Assembly (NCBI GenBank): GCA_028289135.1
Contig: JAQGGW010000004.1
Coordinates: 758-64,757 of the forward strand
Reading direction: 5' to 3'
DNA length: 64,000 bases
From: Candidatus Saccharimonadota bacterium
Lineage (GTDB): Bacteria; Patescibacteriota; Saccharimonadia; Saccharimonadales; JACDBH01
Under the pieces are notes generated by a model. It saw only the letters and a program-made list of their open reading frames with translations, searched no databases and was not told where the DNA came from. The stretch's first letter is position 1, and the number at the start of each line of letters is the position of its first letter. Below, one piece after another: positions 2,566-61,888 of this stretch. The translations under genes and the position numbers were made by a program.

Positions 2566-4221
2566 CTAAAAATGATCTCTAACGTGGGAGAAGCTGTAGT
2601 CCCAAGTAGCGTTGGCCTTTTTGTGCGGGTTAAAGATGTGGTTTGGGTCAAAAATAACTTTGGTTTTTTTAAACAGCTCAACAATTTCTTTGCCGTACAT
2701 TTCTTCTAGCCATGGGCCGCGGACCAAGCCGTCGTTGTGCTCGCCGCTTAAGGAGCCCTTATACTTCAAAACCAGTTCATTAACTTCGCGCATGCTTGGC
2801 TGCAGCTTTTCGCGCTCGTCTTTTTCTTCTAGTTTCATGAGGGGGATAATGTGGAAATTGCCATCGCCCATGTGGCCGGCAATCGTCGCGAGCAATTTAT
2901 ATTTCTTGATAATAACGCGGAGCTCTGGCAAAAACTGAGGCAAATATTCGGGGTTGATCACAAAGTCGTCAATGTATGGCGCGGTATGTTTGTCCTTGAC
3001 CTTGCTCCGGAGCAACTGGAAGCTTGAGCGGCGCATAATCTGGAATTTGCGCTGTTTTTGCTCGGTGTCGTCGTTTTCAAACAAACATTCATGTTTAAAC
3101 TCTTTCATGTCGGCGCGCAAGGCACTGACTTTTTGGCTAACTTCTTCAGGGGTGGCACCGGTAAACTCAGCCAGCAGAACCATCTTGGGAATACCGCGGA
3201 AAAGCAGCAGCGCGTCGGGAATAAGCTGGAAGGCAAGCTTAATGGTCTCTTTCCAGCCGATTAATTTGTGAAAAGAGAAAAACAGCTTAATGCTTAAAAT
3301 CAGCGTGTAGTTATCAAAGCCCTCAAATGTTGCCGGCTTGTGCGTCATGACTTTATTAATTAGGCTTCCAAGGTCATCTGTACTTTTAAGAAAAATAACC
3401 AAGCTGCCTGAGTGCGGGGTCGACGGCACCAAACGGAAGTTAATATCGGTCGTAAACCCAAGCGTGCCCTGGGCGCCGATGATAATCTGAGTCATGTCAA
3501 AAATGCCGGTTTCGCGGTCCCAAACATCCCACAATTTATAGCCGGTGGAGTTTTTACTCACGTGCGGTTTGGCGGCCTTGATTTTGTCATAATTTGCTTC
3601 AATCAGTTTGTAAAGTTCCTTATACAAATTTCCCTCGTAGTCATTTTGGGCGATTTTTGCGTCCAGGCCGGCTTTATTAAGCGGCTTGACGCTATATTCG
3701 TTGCCATCAGCAAACACCACTTTTAGCTCATTTACAAACTTCTCGGTCTTGCCAAATTCCAAAGACTTTTCGCCGCCAGAGTTGTTGTTAACCATACCGC
3801 CAACCGTACAGAGGTCACGTGAAGCCGGGAAGGGAGGCAGCAGAGCGTGCTGCTTCAGTGTTTCGACTTCAAAATCTCGGTAAAACACACCAGGTTGAAC
3901 CTGGGCGGATTGTGATGAAACAGAGGTGATTTTAGTAAAGTGCTTATTAAAGTCGGCAATGATTGAGTCGTTGATGGCACCACCAGACATATCGGTCCCT
4001 GCGCTGCGGGCAGTTACGCTCAAATTTGGGCTGTTGGCGCGCTCTGCATTAATAGTTTTTATAAGTACTTTAACATCGTCAGTGTCAGTAGGGGAGACAA
4101 TCAACTCTGGGCGAAGTTCAAACAACGAAGCGTCGTGGCTATAAAAATCCTTGGCCGTTGCCGAGTCATCTGTTTCACCTTTAAAACCAGCCGCTTTAAG
4201 CGCAGCAGTAAAATTATCCAT
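2566..4221 (-). CDS. FAD-binding oxidoreductase (GlcD / D-lactate dehydrogenase-like)
   Basis: 551 aa. The N-terminal FAD-binding PCMH-type region contains VTARSAGTDMSGGAI. The C-terminal region GSLSGEHNDGLVRGPW is typical of FAD-linked oxidases. Confidence 0.8.
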   Translation of the reverse strand: MDNFTAALKAAGFKGETDDSATAKDFYSHDASLFELRPELIVSPTDTDDVKVLIKTINAERANSPNLSVTARSAGTDMSGGAINDSIIADFNKHFTKITSVSSQSAQVQPGVFYRDFEVETLKQHALLPPFPASRDLCTVGGMVNNNSGGEKSLEFGKTEKFVNELKVVFADGNEYSVKPLNKAGLDAKIAQNDYEGNLYKELYKLIEANYDKIKAAKPHVSKNSTGYKLWDVWDRETGIFDMTQIIIGAQGTLGFTTDINFRLVPSTPHSGSLVIFLKSTDDLGSLINKVMTHKPATFEGFDNYTLILSIKLFFSFHKLIGWKETIKLAFQLIPDALLLFRGIPKMVLLAEFTGATPEEVSQKVSALRADMKEFKHECLFENDDTEQKQRKFQIMRRSSFQLLRSKVKDKHTAPYIDDFVINPEYLPQFLPELRVIIKKYKLLATIAGHMGDGNFHIIPLMKLEEKDEREKLQPSMREVNELVLKYKGSLSGEHNDGLVRGPWLEEMYGKEIVELFKKTKVIFDPNHIFNPHKKANATWDYSFSHVRDHF

Positions 4222-11353: not shown

Positions 11354-11460
11354 GTATACAAACCCTCCGTTAGTTTATTACCTACAATCATAATACGTTT
11401 TTATACTTTTGCAAATATTATCTGTAGAACACCTTGTTTTTACTGAACAAGAAACGGTAA

Positions 11461-11567
11461 CGTACACGAGTGCAGTTTGGCCGAAGAACGAGCACCGGAT
11501 TCGGAGTGTATAGGGAAATACATGCAGAAACGGAGCGGAGTTATTCGGTCAAAATGTGCCGTGTACG
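11461..11567 (-). repeat. intergenic structured repeat, type 1, copy A (candidate cis-acting RNA element)
   Basis: The closing helix is CGTACACG / CGTGTACG. It carries the conserved blocks GCACATTTTG, GCTCCG, CGGTGCT and AAACTGCACT shared with the copies at 17437 and 50148, and a central mini-hairpin GTATttccctATAC. It starts 1 nt after the atpC stop codon. Confidence 0.7.
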
Positions 11568-11993
11568 TTAGCGCCGTTTGTTTCTCTTCAAGCCAGCGAC
11601 TTGCAGGCGTACCGCATGTCTATCCATCAAACTTTGTGCGTGTTGTAATGACACTTGGTCTTTAGCCTCAGCCTTCATTTTCTTAGCCAACTCAAATGCC
11701 TTCTGCACTTCTTGTTCATTCAATTCATCTGCATGATCGGCTTCGTCAACCAAGATTTTTAGTTCGTCATTTTCGACCTGTACAGTACCGCCAGATATTG
11801 CAAAAACTTCGCGCTGGTCGTCACGCTCTCCAGCAGTTTTGCGCACCATAATCGCGCCGTGCGTTGCAACGCTAATTAGCGGCATGTGGCCGGGAAGCAC
11901 ACCGATTTCGCCGTCCAAAGTCGGGATCAAAACTTCGTATGCTTCGCCGTCAAATTTAACGCCGTCTAGTGTATATAAAACAAAGTGAATCAT
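11568..11993 (-). CDS. atpC: F1 ATP synthase subunit epsilon
   Basis: 141 aa with VLIPTLDGEIGVLPGHMPLISV, and it sits immediately after atpD. Confidence 0.88.
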   Translation of the reverse strand: MIHFVLYTLDGVKFDGEAYEVLIPTLDGEIGVLPGHMPLISVATHGAIMVRKTAGERDDQREVFAISGGTVQVENDELKILVDEADHADELNEQEVQKAFELAKKMKAEAKDQVSLQHAQSLMDRHAVRLQVAGLKRNKRR

Positions 11994-12002
11994 GAATGAA
12001 TA

Positions 12003-13653
<1,651 letters not shown>

Positions 13654-13657
<4 letters not shown>

Positions 13658-14541
13658 TTCATTGCCTCCGCGCCGCCGGTTACTTCGGCGATTTCTTGGG
13701 TAATGTTGGACTGGCGGGCGCTGTTGAATGCCAGTGTCAGATCGCTAATAATATCATTCGCGTTATCGGTCGCGTTCTTCATGCTGAGCATGCGCATTGA
13801 ATGCTCAGATGCGATACTCTCCAGCATAGCTTGCCAAATTTGTACTTCCAACAAACGCTCCGTAACATTATCTAGAACATCGGTAATTGACGGCTCAAAA
13901 GTTACGCTGCTGAGCGACTCGGTCGCGCCGGGGTCAGATTCGTCCAAACGGGCAGGCAACAATGACATTGCGTTGGCAACCTGCAAGATGTTTGATTGGT
14001 GAACAGTGTAGAGCAGCTGCACATCATCGACTGCGGCCGTGGCGTACTGGTCGATAATGCTGGTCAAGATTGGGCGGAGGTCATTGGCACTTGGGTGGTC
14101 ACCAAAACCAGGAAAGGCCGCAACAAGTTCAATGCTTTCCAAACGGCGGATAAACTGCACGCCGCGCTTACCGATCACAATCGCTTGGGTTTTAATTCCT
14201 TGTTTTTTGTCCTCGATCGCGGCACGCGTCAAAAGCTTGATGATGTTTGAGTTGTAGGCGCCGGCAAGGCCACCATCGCTGGTGATGGCAACATACAAAC
14301 GGGTCTTTACTTCTCGCTGCACAAACAATGGGTGTTCGTTTACATCAGTTACGGTTGTAAGACGGCTAAGCAGCTCATGGGCGGCAATGCGGTAGCTGCG
14401 CCCGCGCTGTGCCACTTCTGTTGCACGGCGCATTTTTGAGGCCGAAACCAACTCCATCGCCTTGGTAATCTGGCGGGTAGAACGCACACTCTTGATGCGC
14501 CGTTGGAGGAGCTGGGTACTAGGCATTAAAAGGCTCCCCAC
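13654..14541 (-). CDS. atpG: F1 ATP synthase subunit gamma (alternative start at Met6, 14526)
   Basis: LLQRRIKSVRSTRQITKAMELVSASKMRRA at the N-terminus and ITQEIAEVTGGAEAM at the C-terminus are canonical gamma-subunit sequences. Confidence 0.92.
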
Positions 14542-14917
14542 TTCCAGCGTCTTCAGGTGGATAAAGACTACCTATTGGTAGGCCACGAAGTACCGCACTT
14601 TCTTCCATAGTCGTAAAAAACTTCAATTCTGCAGCTCTAGCATTTTCGGTTAACTGTTCAATCGGTAATTGTTCAGTAGTGAGCCCTGCATCCATGAGTG
14701 CATGAATCGCATAACTTATTCCAGCATTAAATGCTGATGAAAGTGTTTCAGCAATGCTTAAGCCAGTTATCTCAGTTAAATCCCCGGCACTTATACCAGA
14801 CAGCATTAGCATACGCGCCTGTTCTGCAACATCTTCAACTTCCATTATTTTACCCACTGAACGCTCAACACTTCGCCTTGCCATATCAGAGACTGGAAAG
14901 TTGTTGGAGTCAGTCAC
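14519..14917 (-). CDS. hypothetical 132-aa protein inserted between atpA and atpG
   Basis: Its GTG start overlaps the atpA stop (TAGTG), and its 3' end overlaps the atpG start by 8-23 nt. It is on the same strand and fills the gap. No motif recognised. It is acidic, and GC is about 37-47% in sampled lines. Confidence 0.5.
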   Translation of the reverse strand: MTDSNNFPVSDMARRSVERSVGKIMEVEDVAEQARMLMLSGISAGDLTEITGLSIAETLSSAFNAGISYAIHALMDAGLTTEQLPIEQLTENARAAELKFFTTMEESAVLRGLPIGSLYPPEDAGSGEPFNA

Positions 14918-16481: not shown

Positions 16482-16883
16482 TTATTTATTCCTCGCGGCA
16501 GTTAATCTTTTTAGCGTATTTAGTTTGGCTCGGACTGTAAGGTCCAGCTCTTCGCCGGCCATTTCGAGCCGCACGCCACCGATGACAGTTTCGTCAATCC
16601 GTTGGTTTAAAACATAACCCTTGGCCCCTGGGAACTCACTTTTTAAAGCGTCCGTTACACCGGCTTTTGAAGCTTGTGAAAGCGGAAAAGCGCTGACAAC
16701 TGTTGCTTCAACGTAGCCGTGGTCGGCGCGGTACTTCAAAACGTCGCGCATAAGTGATTCGATGTCGTCTGTGCGGTCTTCTTCGAGCAAATAGCTGGCA
16801 ATTGCTTGCTTGAGTCTTGTCTCGTCGTCAACTTCCAGAGTACGAGCACCGATGATTTCAGCGAGTTCGGGGCGGGAGATCAT
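16482..16883 (-). CDS. atpH: F1 ATP synthase subunit delta (OSCP), short form, 133 aa
   Basis: The C-terminal [31 protein letters not shown] matches the OSCP/delta C-terminal signature, and the gene lies between atpF and atpA. It is about 45 aa shorter than typical delta subunits. Confidence 0.75.
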
Positions 16884-17407
16884 TATTTTTTACGGCCTTT
16901 CAGGGCTTCGGATACAATTTCTGCATCTTTGCCAGGCGTAACTTTTTCGTGCACAACGGCTTCGGTCGCTTCAGAAACAAGGCCTACAAGGTCTTTTTCT
17001 AGGTTGCGGCGGGCACGGTCGGCATCTTCTTCAATGTGCGCGTCAGCTTCTTTGATGATTGCGTCAGACTTGGCTTTGGCTGATTTTTCTGCTTCGCGCA
17101 ATACTTCGCGTGATTCTTTGTGAGCGTTGGCAATAATGCGGTCGGCATCATGGCGGGCTTCGCGGATAACCTTGTCAGATTCTCCTTCGAGCTCGGCCTG
17201 GCGCTTTTCCATTTTTTCGCCCAATAATATACCGTCCTCAATAGTCTGGCGCCGCTTTTCTAACAAGGCAACGATTGGCTTAAAGGCAAACCGCTTTAGC
17301 ACCAAAAAGACAAAGATAAAGGTAATCAGCTGGATCAAAAAAGCGCTGGTTGAAAAACCAAGGATTCCGCCACTGCTTGCTTCCGCTGCAAAATATGTTG
17401 GTAGCAT
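16883..17407 (-). CDS. atpF: Fo ATP synthase subunit b
   Basis: An N-terminal TM helix is followed by a long charged coiled-coil region (KRRQTIEDGILLGEKMEKRQAELE...). The operon position fits. Confidence 0.85.
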   Translation of the reverse strand: MLPTYFAAEASSGGILGFSTSAFLIQLITFIFVFLVLKRFAFKPIVALLEKRRQTIEDGILLGEKMEKRQAELEGESDKVIREARHDADRIIANAHKESREVLREAEKSAKAKSDAIIKEADAHIEEDADRARRNLEKDLVGLVSEATEAVVHEKVTPGKDAEIVSEALKGRKK

Positions 17408-17436
17408 TTATTTATTCTCCAGGTCTAAGGATTTTT

Positions 17437-17540
17437 GTATATGAGTGCAGTTTGGGCGAAAAGCGAGCACCGTAAACGAGGCGTACGGGATGGTACGGTG
17501 AGTGCGGAGCGCAGATTTTCGTTCAAAATGTGCCATATAC
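17437..17540 (-). repeat. intergenic structured repeat, type 1, copy B, inside the atp operon (candidate cis-acting RNA element)
   Basis: The closing helix is GTATATG / CATATAC. The conserved blocks match copies A and C. The core is TCACC-GTACcatcccGTAC-GCCTC. The element occupies 104 nt of the 147-nt atpE-atpF spacer. Confidence 0.75.
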
Positions 17541-17554
17541 ATAAATCCTACTTA

Positions 17555-17794
17555 TTAAATAATGAACAATGAGGCGAACACGAGTAGCGCCATCAACTCG
17601 ATGATAGCGATAATAACCAAAACCTGGCCAAGATACTTAGCTGCTTCTGGGTTGCGGCCAACTGCGTTCATGAACGCGTTACCGATAAGTCCAATACCAA
17701 TAGCTGGTCCGAACATACCAAAGCCCATCATAATACCTTTAGCAAGGACGGTGTAATCCGGTACTCCTGCTGCTGCGACTGCAAATAACGTCAT
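17555..17794 (-). CDS. atpE: Fo ATP synthase subunit c
   Basis: A 79-aa helical hairpin with GIGLIGNAFMNAVGRNPEA and the ion-binding Glu in IIAIIELMALL. Confidence 0.9.
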   Translation of the reverse strand: MTLFAVAAAGVPDYTVLAKGIMMGFGMFGPAIGIGLIGNAFMNAVGRNPEAAKYLGQVLVIIAIIELMALLVFASLFII

Positions 17795-20816: not shown

Positions 20817-21407
20817 ATGCTAAGAGTACTTATGGCGTTTGAGGATTTTAAAACAAAAGAGTCGGTCGTGTTGGTTTATACCGGCGAGGGCAAAGGCAAA
20901 ACATCTGCCAGCGTGGGGCTGATGGCGCGCGCATTAGGACGGGGGTGGAAAGTGGCCTATGTGCAATTTGTAAAAACCTGGGAAACAGGCGAGTCGCAGT
21001 TTATTGCCAAACTGCTAGAATCTAAAGTTTTTGAAGATAAATTGGTTTATTTTAGAGGCGGCAAAGGATTTTATAACGCCGGTGATTTAAGCGCCAAAGA
21101 TGTTAGCGAAAACGAGCATAAAGAAGCCGCCCGTACCACTTATGAATTTGCACTTAAATGCATTAAAGACCCATCGTTTGACCTAATTATCTGCGATGAA
21201 ATCAACAACTCCGTGCATGATGGCCTTTTGCCAAAGGCTAGCCTCAAAAAGCTCCTAACCAGCCGCGGCGCAGGTACTAGCATTTGTGTAACTGGGCGTA
21301 ACTTCCCAGAGGACCTTTTGCCGCTAATGGACATAGCCACCAACATGACCAAAATTAAGCACCACTTTGATGATAAATTTTTGGCTAACAAAGGTATTGA
21401 TTACTAA
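20817..21407 (+). CDS. cob(I)yrinic acid a,c-diamide adenosyltransferase (CobO/BtuR family)
   Basis: VLVYTGEGKGKTSASVGLMARALGRGWKVAYVQFVK plus ICDEIN match the CobA/CobO/BtuR P-loop family. The start is set at an internal Met downstream of the previous gene's stop. Confidence 0.7.
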   Translation: MLRVLMAFEDFKTKESVVLVYTGEGKGKTSASVGLMARALGRGWKVAYVQFVKTWETGESQFIAKLLESKVFEDKLVYFRGGKGFYNAGDLSAKDVSENEHKEAARTTYEFALKCIKDPSFDLIICDEINNSVHDGLLPKASLKKLLTSRGAGTSICVTGRNFPEDLLPLMDIATNMTKIKHHFDDKFLANKGIDY

Positions 21408-22402
21408 TGTTTGCAGCAACTGCAGTTCAAAGCCTCAACATCCACGCAGCATGGTGGCACTGGGCGCTACTCGGCGGCTGGTTTTTATTTTTGATCCTTT
21501 TTGACATTTTGGTTGTGCACCGCAAAGACCATGTGCCGACGCTTAAAACGGCCGTCCAACAGAGTGCAGTGTGGATCGCGCTTGGCGTTGCACTTGGTTT
21601 AGTGGTATTTGCGGCCTATGGACATGAAGCGGGCAGCCAGTATTTTAGCGGCTATTTGATAGAGAAATCATTGTCTGTCGATAACGTGTTTGCGTGGTCA
21701 GTGATATTGGGCTACTTTAAGGTGCCAAAAGAGTATCAGCACCGGGTGTTGTTCTGGGGGATATTTGGCGCGCTAATTATGCGCACTGTGTTTGTTTTTG
21801 CCGGCATTTCATTGATTAACCACTTCGAACCAATCTTGCTCGTTTTTGGAATCCTGCTCTGTTTTAGCGGCTACAAACTTCTTAAAACCCGCGAAGAAGA
21901 TGAATTTGACCCAAGCAAAAGCAAGCTTTTTAAAACAATTAAAAAAGTTATTCCTGTTAGCCATGGCTTGGACGGCCACAAATTGTTCACAGCCGAAAAT
22001 GGAAAACGGGTTGCCACCATGCTGTTTATGGCGTTGCTTGTCATAGAAATCACTGATGTAATCTTTGCCGTGGACAGCGTTCCGGCAATCTTGGCCATTT
22101 CGCGTGATCCTTTCATTGTGTTGGCCAGCAATGCCGCCGCCATCTTGGGTCTCCGCGCACTATATTTTGTGTTTGAGTTTATTAAGGATAAGTTCTGGAT
22201 GCTAAATAAAGCGCTCGGCGTTTTGCTGTTCTTTATTGGTGTAAAAATGTTTATAACGCCTGAGAAAATTTTTGGCCACGCTTGGCTGTATGTTCACATT
22301 TCAACGGGAATCAGCCTGATAATTATTGGCCTTATGCTTGCAGTTGGCATAGTCGGTTCATTACTCTATCCTCAGGCCACAAATCCCACACCAGCTAAGT
22401 AA
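21407..22402 (+). CDS. TerC-family integral membrane protein
   Basis: A 331-aa polytopic protein with EKSLSVDNVFAW and FAVDSVPAILAIS, the TerC signatures. Confidence 0.8.
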   Translation: MFAATAVQSLNIHAAWWHWALLGGWFLFLILFDILVVHRKDHVPTLKTAVQQSAVWIALGVALGLVVFAAYGHEAGSQYFSGYLIEKSLSVDNVFAWSVILGYFKVPKEYQHRVLFWGIFGALIMRTVFVFAGISLINHFEPILLVFGILLCFSGYKLLKTREEDEFDPSKSKLFKTIKKVIPVSHGLDGHKLFTAENGKRVATMLFMALLVIEITDVIFAVDSVPAILAISRDPFIVLASNAAAILGLRALYFVFEFIKDKFWMLNKALGVLLFFIGVKMFITPEKIFGHAWLYVHISTGISLIIIGLMLAVGIVGSLLYPQATNPTPAK

Positions 22403-22432
22403 ATGTGGGCAAAGCCCAGCATTATACTTAGC

Positions 22433-22542
22433 CTCTCGGCTCATTTCGGCTTGAGACTTTGCGGTGCGCAGAAGCAGTACCCACATGTACAACTTCTTTG
22501 CGCTTCGCAGCCTCGCACCGAAATGAGCTCGAGTGTGGAATC
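22433..22542 (+). repeat. intergenic structured repeat, type 2, copy D (candidate cis-acting RNA element)
   Basis: A long helix GGCTCATTTCGG / CCGAAATGAGCT encloses TTGCGgtgCGCAG, the mini-hairpin GTACccacatGTAC and TTTGCGcttCGCAG. The 3' block is AGCTCGAGTGTGGAATC. It is collinear with the copy at 61468. Confidence 0.7.
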
Positions 22543-22560
22543 TGTGGTAAGCTCACCACT

Positions 22561-40554: not shown

Positions 40555-42375
40555 TTATTGTAATCTGTTTTTGACGCGTTCGAGGCCCATGACTTTCATT
40601 ATGGTCCAAAGGTCAGGTGTACGGTTTTTGCCGGTGAGTTTTACGCGGATAATGCGGGCAAAGTCAGCCACGTTGCCATTAAACTTTTCGGGTGATTCTT
40701 TAAAAACTCCATTGTCGGTAGAAAAACCTGTTTTTTCAGCCGCGGATTTTAGTTTATCGAACCACGTTTGCTGGTCATCATTTTCATCATAAGTACTCAT
40801 AAACTCCGCACATACTGTCGTAACGACGTCAGAAGGAAAGTCTTTAAGCTCTTCCGACACTCGTGAAATAAATTCTTCAGGGAATAAGCCGTCAAAAAAG
40901 TAGCTATAATTTTCTGGGGCATCCGACCATTTGGCCAAGTCTTTGCGTGGTTTGTCGCCGTCCCGTTCAATACTTAAGATCAGGTTTGTATAACTATCGT
41001 CTGCTTCCATTGCCGCTGCAAAACGTGGTGAATTATTGTTTGCCCAAGCCAAAATCTCTGCATTAAACTTATCTTGCGGCAAGCTGGCAATGTAGTCCTT
41101 GGCATAATCTTCAAGCTTTTTCATGTCCAGTAGCGGCGCGCGGCTGGCGGCCAGTTTTTCAAGCGAAATAGGGAAGTCAGTTACTGGTTTGCCGGGGTTT
41201 GCGCGGTACCAGTCTTCAAAGTTGGAGTTCGCTAATCCAAACAAATACGCCTTAACAGCCTCTATAGGGTAGCCAGCTTCCAGCCAATACTGCACGTTTG
41301 CTTCGTCGTCCTTGCGCTTGCTGAGCTTGCGTTTACCGCCGCCGTTTTTGTCGATGACCGATATTGGGGCAAAGTGGCCATAGGTAAAAGGTTCGATGTT
41401 TAACGCCTGGGCAAGTTCAATGTGCAGGGCAGTGCTTGGCAGCCATTCGTCGCTTCTAAACACTTTGGTAATGCGCATAAGATGGTCGTCCACGACATGC
41501 GCCAGGTGATAAGTTGGCAAGCGGTATTCATCGCTTTTAATTAGCGGCACATCCAGGTCGTTTTCAGGCACTTCCATTTTGCCTTTAAAAACATCGGTGT
41601 ACTGGATACGTTTTAGGTGGTCGCCGTTAGATCTAAAACGAAGCACAAATGGTTTTTCGGCGTCTAATGCTGCAATAATATCGGCTTCGGTTTTATTGCG
41701 CCACAAAGCCCAGTCGCCATAATAGCCCGGACGCTGCTTTTTAGCCTGCTGGTCTGCGGTTGCAGCTTTAAGTTCTTCTGGTGTTGCAAAGCAGGGGTAG
41801 GCGCGGCTATTTTTGAGTAGTTCCAGTGCGTAGCCCATGTACGTTTTACCGCGTTCACTCTGAAAATACGGGCCATAAGCGCCGCCCCCTGCAGCCCAGC
41901 CAGTGCGACTATCTGAGTTTTCTCCAGATGAGATAAAACTAATTTTCTCTGATGGAAGAGTAGTTTGATCTACTTTGACATCAGAAAAATCAGTTTTGGC
42001 CATTCGGGAAGGCTCAGTAGATGTGCTGGTCTGGGGTGTAGGGGGCGTGTCTGGGCCTTCATCATAGCCAAGATCAAATTCGCGGAAAGCATTAATAATG
42101 CCCTCAACCGAGCCTTCGACCTCTCGCTTTTTGTCGGTGTCTTCAATTCGCAGAATAAACACGCCGCCAGTCTGGTGAGCAATTCGTTCGTTTATAAGCC
42201 CGGCATAAATCGTGCCAATATGGACAAATCCGGTTGGGCTCGGCGGCACGCGCATTACCTCGGCACCGCCAGGCAACGAGCGGGCAGGGTAAGCTGCTTC
42301 ACTTTCCTGGCGTTCCGTATAGCCATGAGGCGCCAACAAAGCAGTTAAACGTTCAATAAGTTCAGGGGAATACAT
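40555..42375 (-). CDS. gltX: glutamate--tRNA ligase with an insertion of about 55 aa in the catalytic domain
   Basis: PSPTGFVHIG (HIGH motif), RIEDTD, GPYFQSER and KLSKRK (KMSKS motif). The extra segment is DTPPTPQTSTSTEPS...SDSRTGWAA, between YDEGP and GGGAYGPY. Confidence 0.88.
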   Translation of the reverse strand: MYSPELIERLTALLAPHGYTERQESEAAYPARSLPGGAEVMRVPPSPTGFVHIGTIYAGLINERIAHQTGGVFILRIEDTDKKREVEGSVEGIINAFREFDLGYDEGPDTPPTPQTSTSTEPSRMAKTDFSDVKVDQTTLPSEKISFISSGENSDSRTGWAAGGGAYGPYFQSERGKTYMGYALELLKNSRAYPCFATPEELKAATADQQAKKQRPGYYGDWALWRNKTEADIIAALDAEKPFVLRFRSNGDHLKRIQYTDVFKGKMEVPENDLDVPLIKSDEYRLPTYHLAHVVDDHLMRITKVFRSDEWLPSTALHIELAQALNIEPFTYGHFAPISVIDKNGGGKRKLSKRKDDEANVQYWLEAGYPIEAVKAYLFGLANSNFEDWYRANPGKPVTDFPISLEKLAASRAPLLDMKKLEDYAKDYIASLPQDKFNAEILAWANNNSPRFAAAMEADDSYTNLILSIERDGDKPRKDLAKWSDAPENYSYFFDGLFPEEFISRVSEELKDFPSDVVTTVCAEFMSTYDENDDQQTWFDKLKSAAEKTGFSTDNGVFKESPEKFNGNVADFARIIRVKLTGKNRTPDLWTIMKVMGLERVKNRLQ

Positions 42376-46124: not shown

Positions 46125-48317
46125 ATGAATATCCGTCTCAAAACACTTGGCATCAACACCCTGGCTGTGGCCAGTGTTCTTTTTATTTTGTACCAGGTTT
46201 CGGCACCGCTCATTTTGCATGGTTTTGAAAAAGTAGAGACAAATGACGCCATCCAGAACGTCGGCAGAGCCACCGACGCCATCAACAGCCAGCTTTTTTC
46301 ACTTAGCAGCAAGCTGATCGACTGGGCCAGCTGGGACGATTCGTATAACTTTGCGGCCGACAAAAACAACGAGTTTGTACAAAGTAACTTTGGCGGCAAC
46401 GACACCTACAAAAGCCCCATTTTTGACATGATTTTGTACTTTAATACCAAAGGCAAATTGGTCTATGCAAACGGCAGCAGCAAACCCTCTGCCGAGCTTT
46501 TAGACAAGCTGAGCCCAACAAGCCCGTTGTTAAAGTACGACAATGCAGCAAATATTGATGCCGATGCCGAGGCAGTAAGCGGGATTATCACCACCAAAGA
46601 GGGCATTTTACTCGCCTCCAGCCGGCCAATTTTGCATAACGACGGCTCGGGTCCAACCCACGGGTCAATTATTTTTACTAAATTTTTAACAACCGCATAT
46701 ATTGGCGAGCTGGCCGAAACGGCTCATTTGGATCTTGGTTTTTATCCTGTAAACAGCACAAAACTGCCTCCTGACGCTATAGCTATTGAGTCAAGCCTGA
46801 GCGTCGGCAAAACAATAACAAAAGCCCAAAATAGCACCATCATCAATGGCTACACTTTGCTAGCAGGCCTGGATGGCAAGCCAGCAGTGCTGGTGCGTGT
46901 TAACCTCGACCGCGAAATTTATGATCAGGGACGCGAAAGCCTGCACCTTTTTCTTATCATCCTGCTTGTAGCGGGCGTCTTGTTCCCACTGGTTACCTCT
47001 ATACTGCTCGATGCATTGGTAATTCGTAGAATTGAGCTTCTTACCAAAAACGTTACCAAAATTAATGACCAAAACGGCCTTAAAAACAAGCTAACGTTTA
47101 AGGGGAGTGACGAAGTTGCGCTGCTTGCAACCAGCATTAACCACATGCTCCAGCGTATCGAAGACTCTAACCAGCATGTTCATAGCTTAGTAGGCCAGCT
47201 AAAAATCGAAAAAGAGGGCGTCGAAGACCAGGTCAGGCAACGGACACATCAGTTGGAAGAAGAAAAAACCCGCTTTTTTGCCTCCATCAACAGCCTGCCG
47301 CTGGGCTTTATCCTAACCGACTCGAGCGACCATGTCCTCATGATGAATCCAAGCATTAAAAAGATTTTAAGCTTTAGCTCGGATGATGCAAAAAGTATTG
47401 CAAAAAAGATAGCCGAAAAAGACTCTCTGCTGCTTAAGCTCATGGAACACACCAGCAAAGTTACGGACAGCAAAAAAATATCAACCATCGAGCTATCTAC
47501 CCCAGAAGGCCGGTTCTTGCATGCACTGGCAGCCCCCGTCTTAACGCACGCAGGAACTGTAGACGGAACGGTTATTATTGTTGAGGACGTCACCGAAGCT
47601 AAGATTATGGAACGCTCAAAAGAAGAGTTTTTCTCGATTGCTTCCCACGAACTTAGGACACCGCTTACGGCAATCCGCGGCAATACGTCGCTTATCAAAC
47701 AACTCTACGAAGACCAGCTTAAAGACCCTTCGTTTAACGAAATGGTGGACGATATTCACTCCTCTAGCATGCGCTTGATTTCGATTGTAAATGACTTTTT
47801 GGATGTTAGTAGTTTGGAGCAGGGGAAAATTAAATTTACCGAAAAAGATTTTGATATCAGTACAACCATTGAAGAAGTTATAAAAGAAATGAACGGCATG
47901 GTGACCGAGAAAAAGCTGTACCTTACCTTCGAAAAACCAGCCCAGGCACTTCCGCTGCTTCACGCCGATCCGAACCGTATTAAGCAGGTCATCTACAACC
48001 TCATTGGAAACTCTATTAAGTTTACCGAAACAGGCGGCGTAACGATCAAAACAGAAGTCATGCCAAACAAAATGCTCAAGATTATGCTTATCGACACCGG
48101 CCGCGGTATATCACCAGAAGGGCAGCAGCTGCTGTTTCACAAGTTCCAGCAAACGGGTGAAAGCCTGCAGACGCGTGACACTACCCGCGGGACAGGACTG
48201 GGGCTTTATATATCTAAGCTCATTGTGGAACATTTTGGCGGCCAAATAAAGCTGGACGCAAGCCAAGAGGGCGATGGCCATGGCAGCACGTTTAGCATTA
48301 CGCTACCGCTAGCTTAA
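46125..48317 (+). CDS. sensor histidine kinase with a CHASE4-like extracytoplasmic domain, HAMP, PAS, HisKA and HATPase
   Basis: LIDWASWDDSYNF is CHASE4-like. The H-box is IASHELRTPLT, and the N- and G-boxes are NLIGNSIKFT, DTGRGIS and GTGLGLYI. Confidence 0.88.
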   Translation: MNIRLKTLGINTLAVASVLFILYQVSAPLILHGFEKVETNDAIQNVGRATDAINSQLFSLSSKLIDWASWDDSYNFAADKNNEFVQSNFGGNDTYKSPIFDMILYFNTKGKLVYANGSSKPSAELLDKLSPTSPLLKYDNAANIDADAEAVSGIITTKEGILLASSRPILHNDGSGPTHGSIIFTKFLTTAYIGELAETAHLDLGFYPVNSTKLPPDAIAIESSLSVGKTITKAQNSTIINGYTLLAGLDGKPAVLVRVNLDREIYDQGRESLHLFLIILLVAGVLFPLVTSILLDALVIRRIELLTKNVTKINDQNGLKNKLTFKGSDEVALLATSINHMLQRIEDSNQHVHSLVGQLKIEKEGVEDQVRQRTHQLEEEKTRFFASINSLPLGFILTDSSDHVLMMNPSIKKILSFSSDDAKSIAKKIAEKDSLLLKLMEHTSKVTDSKKISTIELSTPEGRFLHALAAPVLTHAGTVDGTVIIVEDVTEAKIMERSKEEFFSIASHELRTPLTAIRGNTSLIKQLYEDQLKDPSFNEMVDDIHSSSMRLISIVNDFLDVSSLEQGKIKFTEKDFDISTTIEEVIKEMNGMVTEKKLYLTFEKPAQALPLLHADPNRIKQVIYNLIGNSIKFTETGGVTIKTEVMPNKMLKIMLIDTGRGISPEGQQLLFHKFQQTGESLQTRDTTRGTGLGLYISKLIVEHFGGQIKLDASQEGDGHGSTFSITLPLA

Positions 48318-50053
48318 AGTTGCCGGGTTTGCTTTTGCCACAAGGAATAATAACGGCCTTTATTTTTAAGCAGCTGGGCGTGAGTGCCTTCTTCTTCGAT
48401 AGCGCCGTTATGCATGACAATTATTCTATCCAGCCCCGCCACGGTGCTGAGCCTGTGGGCGATAATAACTGCCGTGTGTTTTCCAATAATTTCCGGCAGG
48501 GCCGCTTGGATAATAGATTCGCTTTCACTGTCCAGCGCGCTAGTGGCTTCGTCAAATAGGATCATTGGCGCGTTTTTGAGCACCGCCCGGGCAATAACAA
48601 CGCGTTGTTTTTGGCCACCGCTGAGCTTGACACCGCGTTCACCAACAATTGTGTCGTAACCCTTTGGCAGATCCATAATAAAGCTGTGGGCATAGGCGGC
48701 TTTGGCGGCCTTTTCAATTTCCGCGTGGCTGGCAGCCGAGTTGTGGTAGGCAATGTTTTCTTTTATTGTACGGTGAAATAGCACCGGCTCCTGAGGCACG
48801 TAGGCAATATGGCGGCGCAGGTCGCTTTGCTTAACGTCGCGTATGTCTACGCCATCGATAGCAATCGAACCGGACTCAATATCATCAAAACGCATAAGCA
48901 GGCTAGCGAGCGTGCTTTTGCCGGCGCCGCTAAGGCCAACAACGCCCACATGTTCGCCGGCTGCAATCTCCAGATTCATGTTTTTAAAAATATAGCCTGC
49001 CGAATTATCACCGTACCTAAAACTCATATCTTTTATGCTAACTGCGGCTTGGTTTGGGTTAAAGTCCTGAGCTTCTTCCGAATCAGCGATTGACTCATGG
49101 GTTGGTTCCAGAACCTCCAGCGTCGGCACAAGCTTGCTGACAAGATCGTCGTGCCGCTCGATAAGATCAGGCACATCGCCGAGGTTGCGGTTAATCTGAA
49201 ACAGGTAGGTAATAGTAAGGACAATCAAGCTTACTTTACTGTTGCCTCCATGTCGTGAAGCTTGTAACACAAACCAGAAGCCAAGTCCCATTATGAGCGT
49301 AGTCATAATTATGCGCGGCGAATCAAGCAGGATTGTCACCTTACGGCGTTGCCAAAAAGCATCAGCTTCCTGCTTCTCTAACTTCTCAATACGTGTCAAA
49401 GCGGCTGCTTCTTGCCCAGCAGCTTTGTACGCCACAATGTTAGTAATGTCGTCAGCTACTTCTCCCGCAATTTTTCTGTATAGTTCGTGGGACTTCTCCC
49501 TGTAGTGTTTTGTCTTACTCGAAGCCCATGACATATAAAAAATTTGAAATATAACTAATCCAAACGCCGTTAGTCCGACTTTCCATGACGCAATAGTGAG
49601 TACGAGCGCAGGGATAGTAAGAGATACCGATGCACGCACTATATCAGTACGAAGTAGCCTTAACAGGTCGAGTGAACTATCGACATACTGCTTTAACATA
49701 CTTGTTAAATAGCCAGTATGGCTGTCGCGGTAAAATGACATATCTTTATTTGTAAGTTTTTTGTAATACCTAACCGCATTTGTTTCATAAATGGCATTTT
49801 CACCGCGATGTGAGAGCAGGCCGGTAAGAGTTAGTAACACGTCGGCAAACAGTACCACGCTAACAAATAGTATAATGTCATGTTTAGCTTCCCCGTAGTG
49901 ACCAGCCGCAATATTAGCGGCAAGGTTTGCAAGAATTAAGAGCGAAAATATGCGAGCAATAAGTGTACGGATAATTTCCGCCACAAAAGAAAACCACACC
50001 GTAGGCTTGCGCCCATAAGTGTGCAGCAGGTGTTTATAAGCCTTCCGATTCAT
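48314..50053 (-). CDS. ABC exporter, fused permease/ATPase (MsbA-like)
   Basis: A six-TM N-terminal half, then Walker A GLSGAGKST, signature LSGGQKQR and Walker B ILFDEATS. Confidence 0.9.
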   Translation of the reverse strand: MNRKAYKHLLHTYGRKPTVWFSFVAEIIRTLIARIFSLLILANLAANIAAGHYGEAKHDIILFVSVVLFADVLLTLTGLLSHRGENAIYETNAVRYYKKLTNKDMSFYRDSHTGYLTSMLKQYVDSSLDLLRLLRTDIVRASVSLTIPALVLTIASWKVGLTAFGLVIFQIFYMSWASSKTKHYREKSHELYRKIAGEVADDITNIVAYKAAGQEAAALTRIEKLEKQEADAFWQRRKVTILLDSPRIIMTTLIMGLGFWFVLQASRHGGNSKVSLIVLTITYLFQINRNLGDVPDLIERHDDLVSKLVPTLEVLEPTHESIADSEEAQDFNPNQAAVSIKDMSFRYGDNSAGYIFKNMNLEIAAGEHVGVVGLSGAGKSTLASLLMRFDDIESGSIAIDGVDIRDVKQSDLRRHIAYVPQEPVLFHRTIKENIAYHNSAASHAEIEKAAKAAYAHSFIMDLPKGYDTIVGERGVKLSGGQKQRVVIARAVLKNAPMILFDEATSALDSESESIIQAALPEIIGKHTAVIIAHRLSTVAGLDRIIVMHNGAIEEEGTHAQLLKNKGRYYSLWQKQTRQL

Positions 50054-50147
50054 TACCTATACGATACCATTTCTTTTACTTACTAGAATATACTTTACTA
50101 AAAACCCGCCGATTCTTTATAGCCCGCAGATATCGATGGGTTTCGAA

Positions 50148-50247
50148 CGATAGTGCAGCTTGGGATGAAAGCCAAGCACCGAAGCGGAGGCGTATGGCAT
50201 GATACGGTGAGCATCGGAGCACAGGCTTTCGCCCAAGATGTGCATCG
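50148..50247 (-). repeat. intergenic structured repeat, type 1, copy C (candidate cis-acting RNA element)
   Basis: The closing helix is CGAT / ATCG, extendable imperfectly to 50142..50253. The second helix is CTTGGG..AAAGCC / GGCTTT..CCCAAG. The core is TCACC-GTATcatgccATAC-GCCTC, and the conserved blocks match copies A and B. Confidence 0.72.
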
Positions 50248-50265
50248 TGCGGAAGCCTCTCACAT

Positions 50266-50296
50266 AAAAAAGCCCGCTCTCTCAAGCGGGCTTTTT
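50266..50296 (-). terminator. intrinsic terminator downstream of the Asn-rich protein gene (bidirectional-capable)
   Basis: AAAAAAGCCCGC tctctcaa GCGGGCTTTTT, a perfect 7-bp GC-rich stem flanked by A and T runs. Confidence 0.7.
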
Positions 50297-50309
50297 CAGT
50301 AACCGTCAA

Positions 50310-51302
50310 TTAGTTGTTGATGACAGTAGTGTTGCTGTCGCCATTGTTGTTGCCAGCACCGCCTGATGCGCCTGCACCAGCAGTTGTGTTGCCAGAAACA
50401 TTGCTGTTTCCGCTAGTAGAAGTCTGACGAGTGAATGAGATGTTTCCAACGTTGTTGTTGTTCTGAACGTTAGTGTTGTTGTTTGAAACAATCGTTGCGT
50501 TTACAGGTGAGCTTGGGCCCTGTGTAGAGATGTTGGTAGTCTGACCAGCACCTGCGCCGCTGCCGCCGTGGACGCCTGGATCGCCAGCACCGCCGTTGTT
50601 AATACCAACGCTTGAACCAGTACCGTTGTTGTTACCAGCACCGCCTGAACCTGTGCCGCCAGCTGCTGTAGTGTTGCCAGAAGTGTTTACATTGCCGGTC
50701 TTTGAACCTTGGCCGGTAGTGTTAAGGCCAAGAACGTTGTTGTTGTTTGACTTGTTCTTGTTAGTGTTGTCGGACAATACAAGACCTACGCCTGAGTTTG
50801 GACCTTGTGTGCCGACATTTGTGCTGCCAACCATGTCCATTGGACCACAACCGTTGCCGTTATTAATAGCTACAGAAGTGTTGGTGCTATTGTTGTTGGT
50901 TGCGTTGCCGCTTGATGCGCCGCCCATTTTGCCCCAGCTAGACTGGATGTCGCCCATGTGAGCGCTAAAAGCTGCTGCCCATTCGCTATAAGTATGGCCT
51001 TGTGCTGCCCAAACACTTGGGTCCCAAGCGCCCCACGCGCCACCGCCGATGCCAGCAGTTGTATTACCAGAAACGTTGACGTTTCCAGTAGATGCGCTTT
51101 GATTGGTATTATTTACAGATGTAACATTGTTGTTGTTCTGAACGCTGCAGTTGTTGTTGGTCGACTCACTGATAGAGATTGGTGAGCTTGGACCCTGTGT
51201 TGACGCATTAACTCCTGCAAAGGCCATGCCTGTTGAACCAGTGAATAATGCAGTAATTGCTGCGACTGCGACTGTTGCTCCGCGTGGGAATAACTTCTTC
51301 AT
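50310..51302 (-). CDS. secreted Asn/Gly/Ser/Thr-rich protein with three internal repeats
   Basis: The signal peptide is MKKLFPRGATVAVAAITALFTGSTGMAFA. The repeat TQGP(S/N)S...NNNNV...TGN(V/S)N(V/T)SGNTTA(G/A)G occurs three times. Confidence 0.75.
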   Translation of the reverse strand: MKKLFPRGATVAVAAITALFTGSTGMAFAGVNASTQGPSSPISISESTNNNCSVQNNNNVTSVNNTNQSASTGNVNVSGNTTAGIGGGAWGAWDPSVWAAQGHTYSEWAAAFSAHMGDIQSSWGKMGGASSGNATNNNSTNTSVAINNGNGCGPMDMVGSTNVGTQGPNSGVGLVLSDNTNKNKSNNNNVLGLNTTGQGSKTGNVNTSGNTTAAGGTGSGGAGNNNGTGSSVGINNGGAGDPGVHGGSGAGAGQTTNISTQGPSSPVNATIVSNNNTNVQNNNNVGNISFTRQTSTSGNSNVSGNTTAGAGASGGAGNNNGDSNTTVINN

Positions 51303-61286: not shown

Positions 61287-61463
61287 ATGAAAATGCTTAT
61301 CTTTCTTGGCACCACTGTGGGCGGTGTACTTGGCGGGCTTTTTGGTCAAATACTTGATAAAGGTAATGGTCTAGGTGGCTGGAGCCTGTTATTTGGCGGT
61401 TTAGTAGGACCATTATTAGGTTTGTGGGCCGGCTATAAAATCGGCAAATACATGGCCGAATGA
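61287..61463 (+). CDS. small Gly-rich membrane protein (58 aa, below the track cutoff)
   Basis: Translated by hand: MKMLIFLGTTVGGVLGGLFGQILDKGNGLGGWSLLFGGLVGPLLGLWAGYKIGKYMAE. It has two glycine-zipper-like helices. Confidence 0.45.
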   Translation: MKMLIFLGTTVGGVLGGLFGQILDKGNGLGGWSLLFGGLVGPLLGLWAGYKIGKYMAE

Positions 61464-61467
61464 TCCA

Positions 61468-61588
61468 GGAATCCCACACTTGGCTATTTCCGCCCCGAGT
61501 CCTTGCGGTACGCAGTCACCATAATTAGATATATGCCTCCTTTGCGTTCCGCAGACTCAGAACGAAACTAGCTCGAGCGTGGAATCCC
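61468..61588 (+). repeat. intergenic structured repeat, type 2, copy E (candidate cis-acting RNA element)
   Basis: Collinear with copy D. The elements are GGCTATTTCCG / CGAAACTAGCT, TTGCGgtaCGCAG, TCACC-ataattagatatat-GCCTCC, TTTGCGttcCGCAG and AGCTCGAGCGTGGAATC. GGAATCCC occurs at both ends (61468 and 61581). Confidence 0.7.
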
Positions 61589-61888
61589 TGAAGTTGTGAG
61601 GAAAAATTTCTCAGTTTTGTGTTTGAAACTTGACGGGTACACCTTTGATACAGTAGGGTAAGGAGCTATATGCCAATTCAGGCATGACTTTAACCATAAG
61701 TTTGATAGACTACAGTGTACATGAACGCGTACCAGAATAACTTACTAGGCATAAAATGAATTATTTGCGAGATAAAATTAACAAAGTGCGACAAGAGGTA
61801 GCATTAGCTACATTGCGAAGCAGTTTGTTAATTTTAGCCGAAAATAGTCATTTTAGGGCAGGAAGGATATTCCGGTACGCGTTCTAAT

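Follow-up and report, generated by a model that had tools for sequence, protein, structure and literature searches.

A dispersed palindromic repeat next to an ABC exporter gene of a Candidatus Saccharimonadota bacterium

The exporter locus and its hairpin

The window analysed here, a stretch of 64,000 nt from a Candidatus Saccharimonadota bacterium (GenBank assembly GCA_028289135.1, contig JAQGGW010000004.1, positions 758 to 64,757 of the forward strand), holds a long hairpin, copy C of a dispersed repeat, between the gene of an Asn-rich protein and the gene of an ABC exporter. On the minus strand the upstream neighbour of copy C is the Asn-rich gene (50310–51302; 330 aa, no Pfam family); it is followed by an intrinsic terminator (50266–50296), by copy C and by the downstream neighbour, the exporter gene (48314–50053; ABC_membrane and ABC_tran domains). 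This order, with the exporter start at 50053, had been given in a preliminary description of the same DNA and is all present in the sequence. That description had set the limits of the element at 50148–50247; the element is real, but it is larger. The covariance model R1, which we built from 25 copies of type 1, places it at 50137–50258 of the plus strand, the strand on which its fold is selected (97 bits, E-value 6e-23), as a rod-like hairpin of ~122 nt, with pairing that reaches about 50135–50262.

Read on the minus strand, copy C lies 8 nt from the terminator and 84 nt upstream of the exporter ATG (50053). The terminator, recognized in the sequence and by a terminator scan and listed with no strand, is flanked by an A-run and a T-run on either side and could stop transcription in both directions. 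It is the only intrinsic terminator that the scan reports; the outer stems of the repeat are A+U-rich, with no consistent U tract on either strand. The Rfam matches that look like a leader (amino-acid leader) fall only on this terminator and none falls on copy C. A promoter scan detected no sigma-70-like site within 49950–50400 on either strand, and no promoter is detectable between the terminator and copy C, a gap of just 8 nt.

The hairpin of copy C is evolutionarily maintained, far beyond chance. In the alignment of the 25 type-1 copies 91% of the cells were paired and 30 of the 46 pairs had changed on both sides; not one of 500 shuffles reached the observed values, and slid partners gave 35–46% paired. 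The substitutions which the preliminary description took for compensatory are truly so, as the pairing held when more copies were aligned: the copy C pairings CTTGGG/CCCAAG, AAAGCC/GGCTTT and GTAT/ATAC and the contrasting pairings of copy B, TTTG/CAAA, CGAAAA/TTTTCG and GTAC/GTAC, were found as quoted, and copies A and B were recovered by nhmmer at 11461–11570 and 17431–17550 with E-values from 5e-14 to 1e-34.

Conservation is highest at the GA-rich apex, which is nearly invariant, and the outermost stems are copy-specific. In copy C the conserved apical domain, located by a pattern match and by the alignments, occupies 50175–50220 of the plus strand and reads AGCACCG-AAGC-GGAG-GCGUAU-loop-AUACGG-UGAG-CAUCGGAGC; it consists of a helix with an A.A mismatch, a tandem G.A/A.G beside the terminal hairpin and an internal loop below, which is GA/GCA in the family and AA/ACA in copy C. 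On the selected strand the unpaired motifs of the apex are purine-rich (the A.A mismatch, the tandem G.A/A.G, the GA/GCA loop and often an AA bulge), and they persist in diverged copies while the surrounding helices covary. Two adjacent wobble pairs, U.G and G.U, are kept in 24 and 22 of the 25 copies, respectively, and the pair closing the terminal loop varies between U.G, U-A and C-G. A kink-turn was considered for the apex and rejected on inspection only: the tandem G.A is present, but two base pairs separate it from the 2-nt AA bulge, which some classes lack. The cores of the hammerhead, hairpin and other ribozymes are absent by inspection and from the Rfam matches.

The fold is selected on one strand only, which for copy C is the plus strand of the window, antisense to the neighbouring genes; the minus strand, which the preliminary description had used, is the less well paired of the two. 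The folding energy of copy C is −62.7 kcal/mol (z-score −6.55) on the plus strand and −46.9 kcal/mol (z-score −3.2) on the minus strand. The same strand as in copy C was the more stable one in 51 of 51 copies and later in 58 of 58 (mean −63.5 versus −49 kcal/mol), and R1 scored copies A–C at 97–119 bits on the plus strand versus 16–29 bits on the minus strand (16 for copy C). Among the cells of paired columns there were 894 Watson–Crick pairs, 152 G.U, 21 A.C and 83 other mismatches. On the selected strand G.U is thus ~7-fold enriched and A.C is no commoner than the other mismatches; because of these two properties we conclude that pairing is selected on a single strand. Mutational bias was rejected as the source of the G.U excess: at 4-fold sites (sense-strand C/(C+G) 0.635 and A/(A+T) 0.458) the skews are <1.8-fold and of mixed sign, which leaves a 5–7-fold bias beyond reach, and the frequency of A.C, being at the level of the other mismatches, also disfavours it. 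The median length of the longest unbroken helix is 12 bp on one strand and 9 bp on the other, a difference too small to decide for or against an asymmetry imposed by RNase III.

The repeat family and its genomic settings

The conserved centre was turned into a degenerate pattern, with which 185,579 species genomes were searched, one for each GTDB species. The pattern matched at 51 loci, mostly in metagenome-assembled genomes (MAGs) of Saccharibacteria, Saccharimonadales and other Patescibacteria, with a minority in MAGs labelled Alphaproteobacteria, Planctomycetales and Limnocylindrales. The match on a Pirellulales contig (locus L039) sits in coding sequence and looks like a chance match, while the closed genome of Sporomusa aerivorans has three identical copies in rRNA spacers. 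Further copies were found by R1 within the fetched loci, so that these loci and the window contain at least 58. All copies, 117–135 nt in length, are long imperfect hairpins with copy-specific outer stems that are often perfectly paired; identity is 64–70% within a type and 52–56% between types.

No Rfam 15 family matched the element in copy C, copy B or the copy of locus L024, either at the gathering score or at E-value ≤10, which rules out a known RNA family. Searches with blastn in INPHARED and PLSDB gave no match and the pattern matched nothing in IMG/VR; a phage or plasmid origin was rejected on these grounds. We found no description of this element in the literature on structured RNAs, repeats and miniature inverted-repeat transposable elements, or MITEs, of Saccharibacteria and Patescibacteria.

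Five copies in two subfamilies were identified by R1 in the window. Copy B (17429–17548, plus strand, 119.5 bits) lies between atpE (17555–17794, minus strand) and atpF (16883–17407, minus strand) of an F-type ATPase operon, and copy A (11454–11574, plus strand, 98.3 bits) between the start of a MIP channel gene (11353) and the stop of atpC (11568). The outer stem of copy A covers the last codons of atpC, the arms of inverted repeat I8 being at 11446–11468 and 11560–11582. The second subfamily is represented by copy D (61468–61588, minus strand, 64.8 bits), with a fold of −73.6 versus −47.6 kcal/mol on the two strands, and by copy E (22424–22543, minus strand, 46.9 bits); these two are 67% identical to each other and 52–56% identical to type 1. 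Copy D begins 4 nt past the stop of an open reading frame (ORF) for a 58-aa glycine-zipper protein (61287–61463, plus strand), and copy E is situated 21 nt past the stop of a TerC-family gene (21407–22402, plus strand), ahead of an SNase-domain gene; the three assignments are from Pfam matches.

Some smaller observations belong to the same survey. The outer stem of copy A (11560–11582) takes in the atpC stop and the ~4 codons before it; judged from sequence, the AtpC C-terminus ...KRNKRR may be encoded by the repeat through ORF read-in and not be ancestral. The outer consensus of the second subfamily is GAUUCCACNCUCGAGCU..UUUCG. Two long hairpins of the window do not belong to the family and are matched only weakly by R1 (21 bits): an A+T-rich one at 61745–61862, 160 nt from copy D (−39.1 kcal/mol on the plus strand, z-score −7.1), and one at 41905–42025 within the ORF 40555–42375 of the minus strand (−49.5 kcal/mol on the plus strand, z-score −7.3). 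In the atp operon there are two extra minus-strand ORFs to which no identity was assigned, 13418–13657 (79 aa, between atpG and atpD) and 14519–14917 (132 aa, between atpA and atpG).

Each of the five copies in the window adjoins the end of a gene (atpC, atpE, the Asn-rich gene, the glycine-zipper ORF and the TerC-family gene) and has its selected strand antisense to that gene, so that orientation tracks the local gene direction on both strands of the chromosome. An orientation linked to replication was therefore rejected: both orientations occur in one 64-kb window, each following the local gene. In the whole family 29 copies begin −7 to +6 nt from the stop codon of an ORF on the opposite strand. 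Beside protein genes, with neighbours classified by ourselves, ~32 copies are antisense and 4 are sense (binomial 2e-6), compared with a ratio of 6:5 among the copies of tRNA and rRNA operons (Fisher p 0.02 against the copies at protein genes). The flanking gene pairs were co-directional in 31 cases and convergent in 8. The upstream genes are those for AtpE (eight genomes), S21, S15, L25, IF-1, AtpH, pilin-like and secreted proteins, tRNAs and 23S rRNA. Since copies were found behind stop codons, in the gaps between tRNAs, within rRNA spacers, in a 5′ untranslated region and inside an ORF, the role is not purely operon-internal, as had been argued from copy C in the preliminary description. 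No conserved motif stands at a fixed distance upstream of 50+ copies; with no sigma-70-like site at copy C either, an independent small RNA gene with its own promoter was rejected.

Three settings are of interest in themselves. In S. aerivorans (L003, L020 and L049, ~3535–3656) the identical variant CAGAUGCUAGGC...AACGACGCAGAUGG lies between 5S and 23S, 13 nt from the 5′ end of 23S, and its selected strand has the sense of the rRNA; the order of this rRNA operon, 16S-tRNA-tRNA-5S-23S, is unusual in itself. At L019 (6238–6534) a copy is located between rplJ and the L10 leader (Rfam RF00557); its selected strand is sense, a rare case of the mRNA-sense orientation. At L051 (6822–7122) two inverted copies surround one bidirectional terminator between convergent genes.

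The behaviour of the family is that of a mobile palindromic repeat, with presence/absence polymorphism that includes the site of copy C. The closest relative found, L056, encodes an ABC protein 74% identical to that of the window and has the same genes beside it, among them a PAS-HisKA kinase and an Asn-rich orthologue that ends in ...VINN*. Its exporter spacer is 77 nt long and consists of the terminator and the same ~25 nt before the ATG as in the window; R1 finds no element there. More distant exporter orthologues are without the element as well, as are L057 and L058, and the spacers of orthologues with 62% and 61% identity are unrelated. In the window a weak second hairpin followed by UUUUU (50100–50143, minus strand; −15.4 kcal/mol, z-score −1.9) is found between copy C and the exporter start, and the ~70-nt stretch around it is missing in L056 too.

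The repeat was also found in frame within a GT4 glycosyltransferase gene, at L032 2509–2631 (123 nt; here the selected strand is the sense strand), L009 5151–5267 and L054 619–741. Most of the 120 best homologues of this protein are 363–373 aa long and a minority is 413–454 aa long. In an alignment of 12 sequences, 7 have an insert of 41–56 aa with the conserved peptide EHRKG.V...T.SAER, placed between AEAKGI(K/R) and LH(V/I)NYCHAPTHYYW; the 5 homologues with no insert are 71–78% identical to the insert-bearing protein of L032. At the DNA level the filled and empty alleles differ by an insertion of ~129 nt, with no obvious target-site duplication; more generally, none of 59 copies has direct repeats where its hairpin ends. 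In the GT4 copies the outer stem covers host-like coding sequence with its 3′ arm, and this arm differs between L032 and L054 together with its complement.

Copy numbers and orientations differ as well between the orthologous tRNA-Thr/Tyr/Thr clusters of L006 and L011, and in L006 four copies alternate with three tRNAs. Nearly every tRNA-Tyr/Thr/Thr spacer is filled in these clusters (L006 4387–5193, L011 2201–2757), with hairpins ending 6–10 nt from the tRNA ends.

Interpretation of copy C and the alternatives

We consider copy C to be, probably, a palindromic repeat of a kind that is, or once was, mobile, inserted between two genes and with no gene-specific regulatory role. For the exporter it serves at most as a structured spacer of a generic sort behind a terminator and not as a dedicated regulator, because the nearest syntenic site is empty, the selected strand is the opposite one and the copies flank unrelated genes.

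The repeat would spread as a strand-specific single-stranded hairpin, of RNA or of single-stranded DNA (ssDNA), and a putative trans-acting protein would recognize this hairpin at the conserved apex; that the fold is selected strand-specifically and the apex conserved implies a single-stranded intermediate which a trans-acting factor recognizes. Insertions might survive where a compact genome tolerates ~120 nt, that is, after stop codons, in tRNA and rRNA spacers and in surface loops of proteins. Beside translated genes an orientation filter would operate, such that the persisting copies mostly put the weaker complement (~14 kcal/mol less stable) in the mRNA. A filter of survival is the simplest account of the orientation bias because the bias is absent in operons of stable RNAs.

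Several facts weigh against an insertion as the whole explanation. No transposase, REP-associated tyrosine transposase (RAYT; REP for repetitive extragenic palindrome), reverse transcriptase or other mobilizing enzyme was identified, no systematic search having been made, and no near-identical (recent) copies were seen, so that current mobility is unproven. It is the centre of the hairpin that is conserved and not the termini, unlike in MITEs. The site of copy B is occupied in eight genomes, the window and L007, L012, L023, L026, L042, L046 and L050, whose AtpE proteins are ~60% identical as estimated by eye rather than computed; among these orthologous atpE–atpF copies 24 of 46 pairs are double-changed, with 293 Watson–Crick, 46 G.U and 4 A.C pairings. 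Such retention in streamlined genomes of ~1 Mb looks like purifying selection for a host function and not like selfish persistence, and the near-identity of the apex from Saccharimonadia to the rRNA spacers of Sporomusa suggests a cellular partner. On the selected strand no promoter is evident, and the terminator at L051 would block antisense transcription into the elements there. Some old copies, e.g. the one at atpE–atpF, have probably been co-opted (domesticated).

Our confidence in the alternatives considered below overlaps with that in a repeat insertion, and overlaps among them, and is not meant to sum. A possible one, to which we give a minority of our confidence, is a structured non-coding RNA transcribed from the selected strand, in which the rod would provide stability and the GA-rich apex would bind a conserved protein. 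It would act in cis where the neighbouring gene has its 3′ boundary, as a module for antisense action, insulation or processing; it could let RNase III enter or stop antisense transcripts in a polar manner, and for copy C the transcript would end at 50266–50296. The pairing statistics favour the antisense strand, as such an RNA would have it; the conserved G.U pairs, the covarying loop-closing pair and the tandem G.A, A.A mismatch and GA/GCA loop kept amid covarying helices are in line with it, and so are the atpE–atpF site kept across deep divergence and the terminator that follows the hairpin on the selected strand in copy C and L018. In Sporomusa, L035, L006 and L019 the selected strand is indeed transcribed, within rRNA, tRNA or rplJ leader transcripts. 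Yet no conserved promoter exists upstream on this strand, the atpE–atpF hairpin stands only ~22 nt from the atpF start, the 29 hairpins adjoining a stop codon leave no room for a 3′ end signal, and at L051 the layout of gene, element and shared terminator blocks antisense entry. Convergent gene pairs, moreover, are not enriched (31 co-directional versus 8), and the presence/absence polymorphism and the in-frame ORF insertion better fit a mobile repeat.

It is doubtful that the hairpin works on the sense mRNA as a REP-like 3′ structure, an exonuclease block or processing site which stabilizes the upstream cistron and would make expression differ within operons, for example by keeping the AtpE c-subunit high relative to AtpF. 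At operon-internal sites the sense transcript certainly holds the hairpin, which is still about −49 kcal/mol on that strand; 29 copies are counted as beginning 0–6 nt past a stop codon, and the upstream genes are often highly expressed (AtpE eight times, S21, S15, L25, IF-1, pilin-like, tRNAs and 23S). The REP of malE–malF is a precedent for mRNA stabilization, and REP and ERIC elements more widely provide one (PMC10969869). Nevertheless, on the sense strand A.C is 7 times commoner than G.U, with G.U at the level of random mismatches, the reverse of what selection for pairing on that strand would produce and a pattern for which no natural explanation exists; a plain exonuclease block leaves the conserved apex unexplained, tRNA and rRNA operons hold both orientations, and copy C, being behind an intrinsic terminator, would rarely be in the upstream mRNA.

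We find it improbable, too, that no RNA is involved and that the repeat is an ssDNA hairpin, with G.T in place of G.U, serving as a substrate of a HUH/RAYT or IS200/IS605-type transposase or, as an attC-like site, of a tyrosine recombinase; the enzyme would insert the repeat and excise it with precision. Such a substrate would account for the strand-specific structure, for the absence of a target-site duplication and the apparently precise empty alleles, and it needs no promoter; there is a parallel with the integron attC site, as the folded bottom strand of attC is antisense to the cassette ORF and starts at the ORF stop codon. The orientation, however, tracks local genes on both strands within 64 kb; it does not track the direction of replication, which ssDNA transposition into the lagging-strand template would be expected to do. 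Inspection revealed neither RYYYAAC/GTTRRRY core sites nor a conserved 5′ GTAG, no candidate enzyme gene was found (none was searched for systematically), and GA-rich internal loops are typical RNA motifs.

Very improbable, in our view, is the role that the preliminary description had favoured, that of a cis-acting 5′ leader or promoter element regulating the exporter from the minus strand. The conserved structure and the position of copy C, upstream of the exporter ATG and behind the terminator of the upstream gene, could suggest it. But the closest syntenic orthologue is without the element and the orthologues of 62% and 61% identity have unrelated spacers; the same element flanks unrelated genes, tRNAs and rRNAs, and the copies of the family have no consistent downstream gene, most of them adjoining the end of an upstream gene. 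Pairing is selected on the other strand, the 8-nt gap between terminator and element has no detectable promoter, and transcription of copy C on the minus strand, directly behind a terminator, would need read-through.

A broader proposal, which we put forward tentatively and hold to be rather unlikely, is that the repeat constitutes an undescribed class of structured nucleic-acid element whose GA-rich apex docks a conserved cellular protein. If true, antisense RNAs would function systematically at the 3′ borders of genes with high expression, and a conserved one would lie in the atp operon; alternatively, there would be a new strand-specific mobilization mechanism, with the copy-specific outer stem templated from the target flank.

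Significance and comparison with known systems

Saccharibacteria and other Patescibacteria have genomes of ~1 Mb with a coding density of about 94% and with no validated small RNAs (bioRxiv 10.1101/2022.03.25.485537). Because these genomes are so small and so densely coding, a 120-nt repeat occurring roughly once per 13 kb makes up a sizeable, unannotated share of the non-coding DNA. Its recognition averts mis-annotation of copies as leaders, riboswitches or spurious ORF extensions (as at the C-terminus of AtpC and in the GT4 insert), and the repeat is usable as a marker in typing strains. Selection of the fold on the antisense strand and conservation of the apex across phyla go beyond what knowledge of REP elements, MITEs and Rickettsia palindromic elements (RPEs) explains, and both features could lead to a new RNA–protein or DNA–protein system.

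The structured RNAs of Rfam 15 with which the repeat can be compared (6S, SRP, Y RNA, self-cleaving ribozymes and OMEGA/HEARO) share with it a rod fold, conserved internal loops and strong covariation; they differ in that no family matches the element at E-value ≤10 and in that the element is multi-copy and positionally polymorphic. The attC sites of integrons resemble it in being imperfect palindromes (57–141 nt) with structure conserved above sequence, in starting at the stop of the preceding ORF and in folding on the antisense strand. Unlike attC, the repeat does not show the core sites R″ (RYYYAAC) and R′ (GTTRRRY) upon inspection of the alignments (no formal scan was made); it lies next to core genes of conserved operons (atp, tRNA, rRNA) and not next to cassettes, no integrase is known here, and it is the centre that is conserved.

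Bacterial MITEs such as Correia/NEMIS, ERIC and RUP, whose RNA folds into long hairpins, are likewise elements of 100–150 bp in many copies, co-transcribed with their neighbours and possible substrates of RNase III and RNase E. They have conserved terminal inverted repeats and a target-site duplication, whereas here the outer stems are copy-specific, no target-site duplication is seen and the centre is conserved. The effects of MITE hairpins on mRNA depend on orientation (PMC10969869).

The elements of the REP/BIME/REPIN group, mobilized by RAYT (a Y1 HUH enzyme), resemble the repeat in being palindromes outside genes, placed behind gene 3′ ends or between cistrons. REPINs, moreover, are mobile units of ~100 nt that form a hairpin, are recognized as strand-specific single-stranded hairpins and can stabilize the upstream mRNA. 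REP is a palindrome of ~35 nt with a conserved 5′ tetranucleotide, and REPIN its inverted doublet; the repeat described here is one continuous rod, no 5′ tetranucleotide of the GTAG type is present in the alignments, the conserved sequence is at the apex and the repeat occurs also inside an ORF.

With RPE-1 to RPE-10, whose properties we took for this comparison from a review (PMC10969869), the repeat shares its character of a dispersed palindrome of ~100–150 bp in a reduced genome, the existence of several subfamilies and the lack of a known transposase. Like the RPEs, it is present both in intergenic regions and in frame in protein genes, to which it adds a conserved peptide without destroying the ORF (here EHRKG.V...T.SAER in GT4). 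The host phylum is different, here Patescibacteria; most copies here are intergenic and antisense to the flanking gene, and the apex is conserved and not the whole element. To our knowledge, strand-specific selection of pairing is not described for RPEs. The strict core pattern gave no Rickettsia record among the species genomes scanned; the likeness shown to RPEs is one of behaviour, and the repeat is a second, independent example, after Rickettsia, of palindromic repeats invading proteins in reduced genomes.

The kind of element to which copy C belongs is thus known, that of the REP-, RPE- or MITE-like palindromic repeats. The family itself is undescribed, and three traits set it apart from the known ones: its conservation lies in the centre and not at the ends, no target-site duplication is visible and its fold is selected antisense to genes. 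In behaviour it is closest to RPEs and to REP/REPIN.

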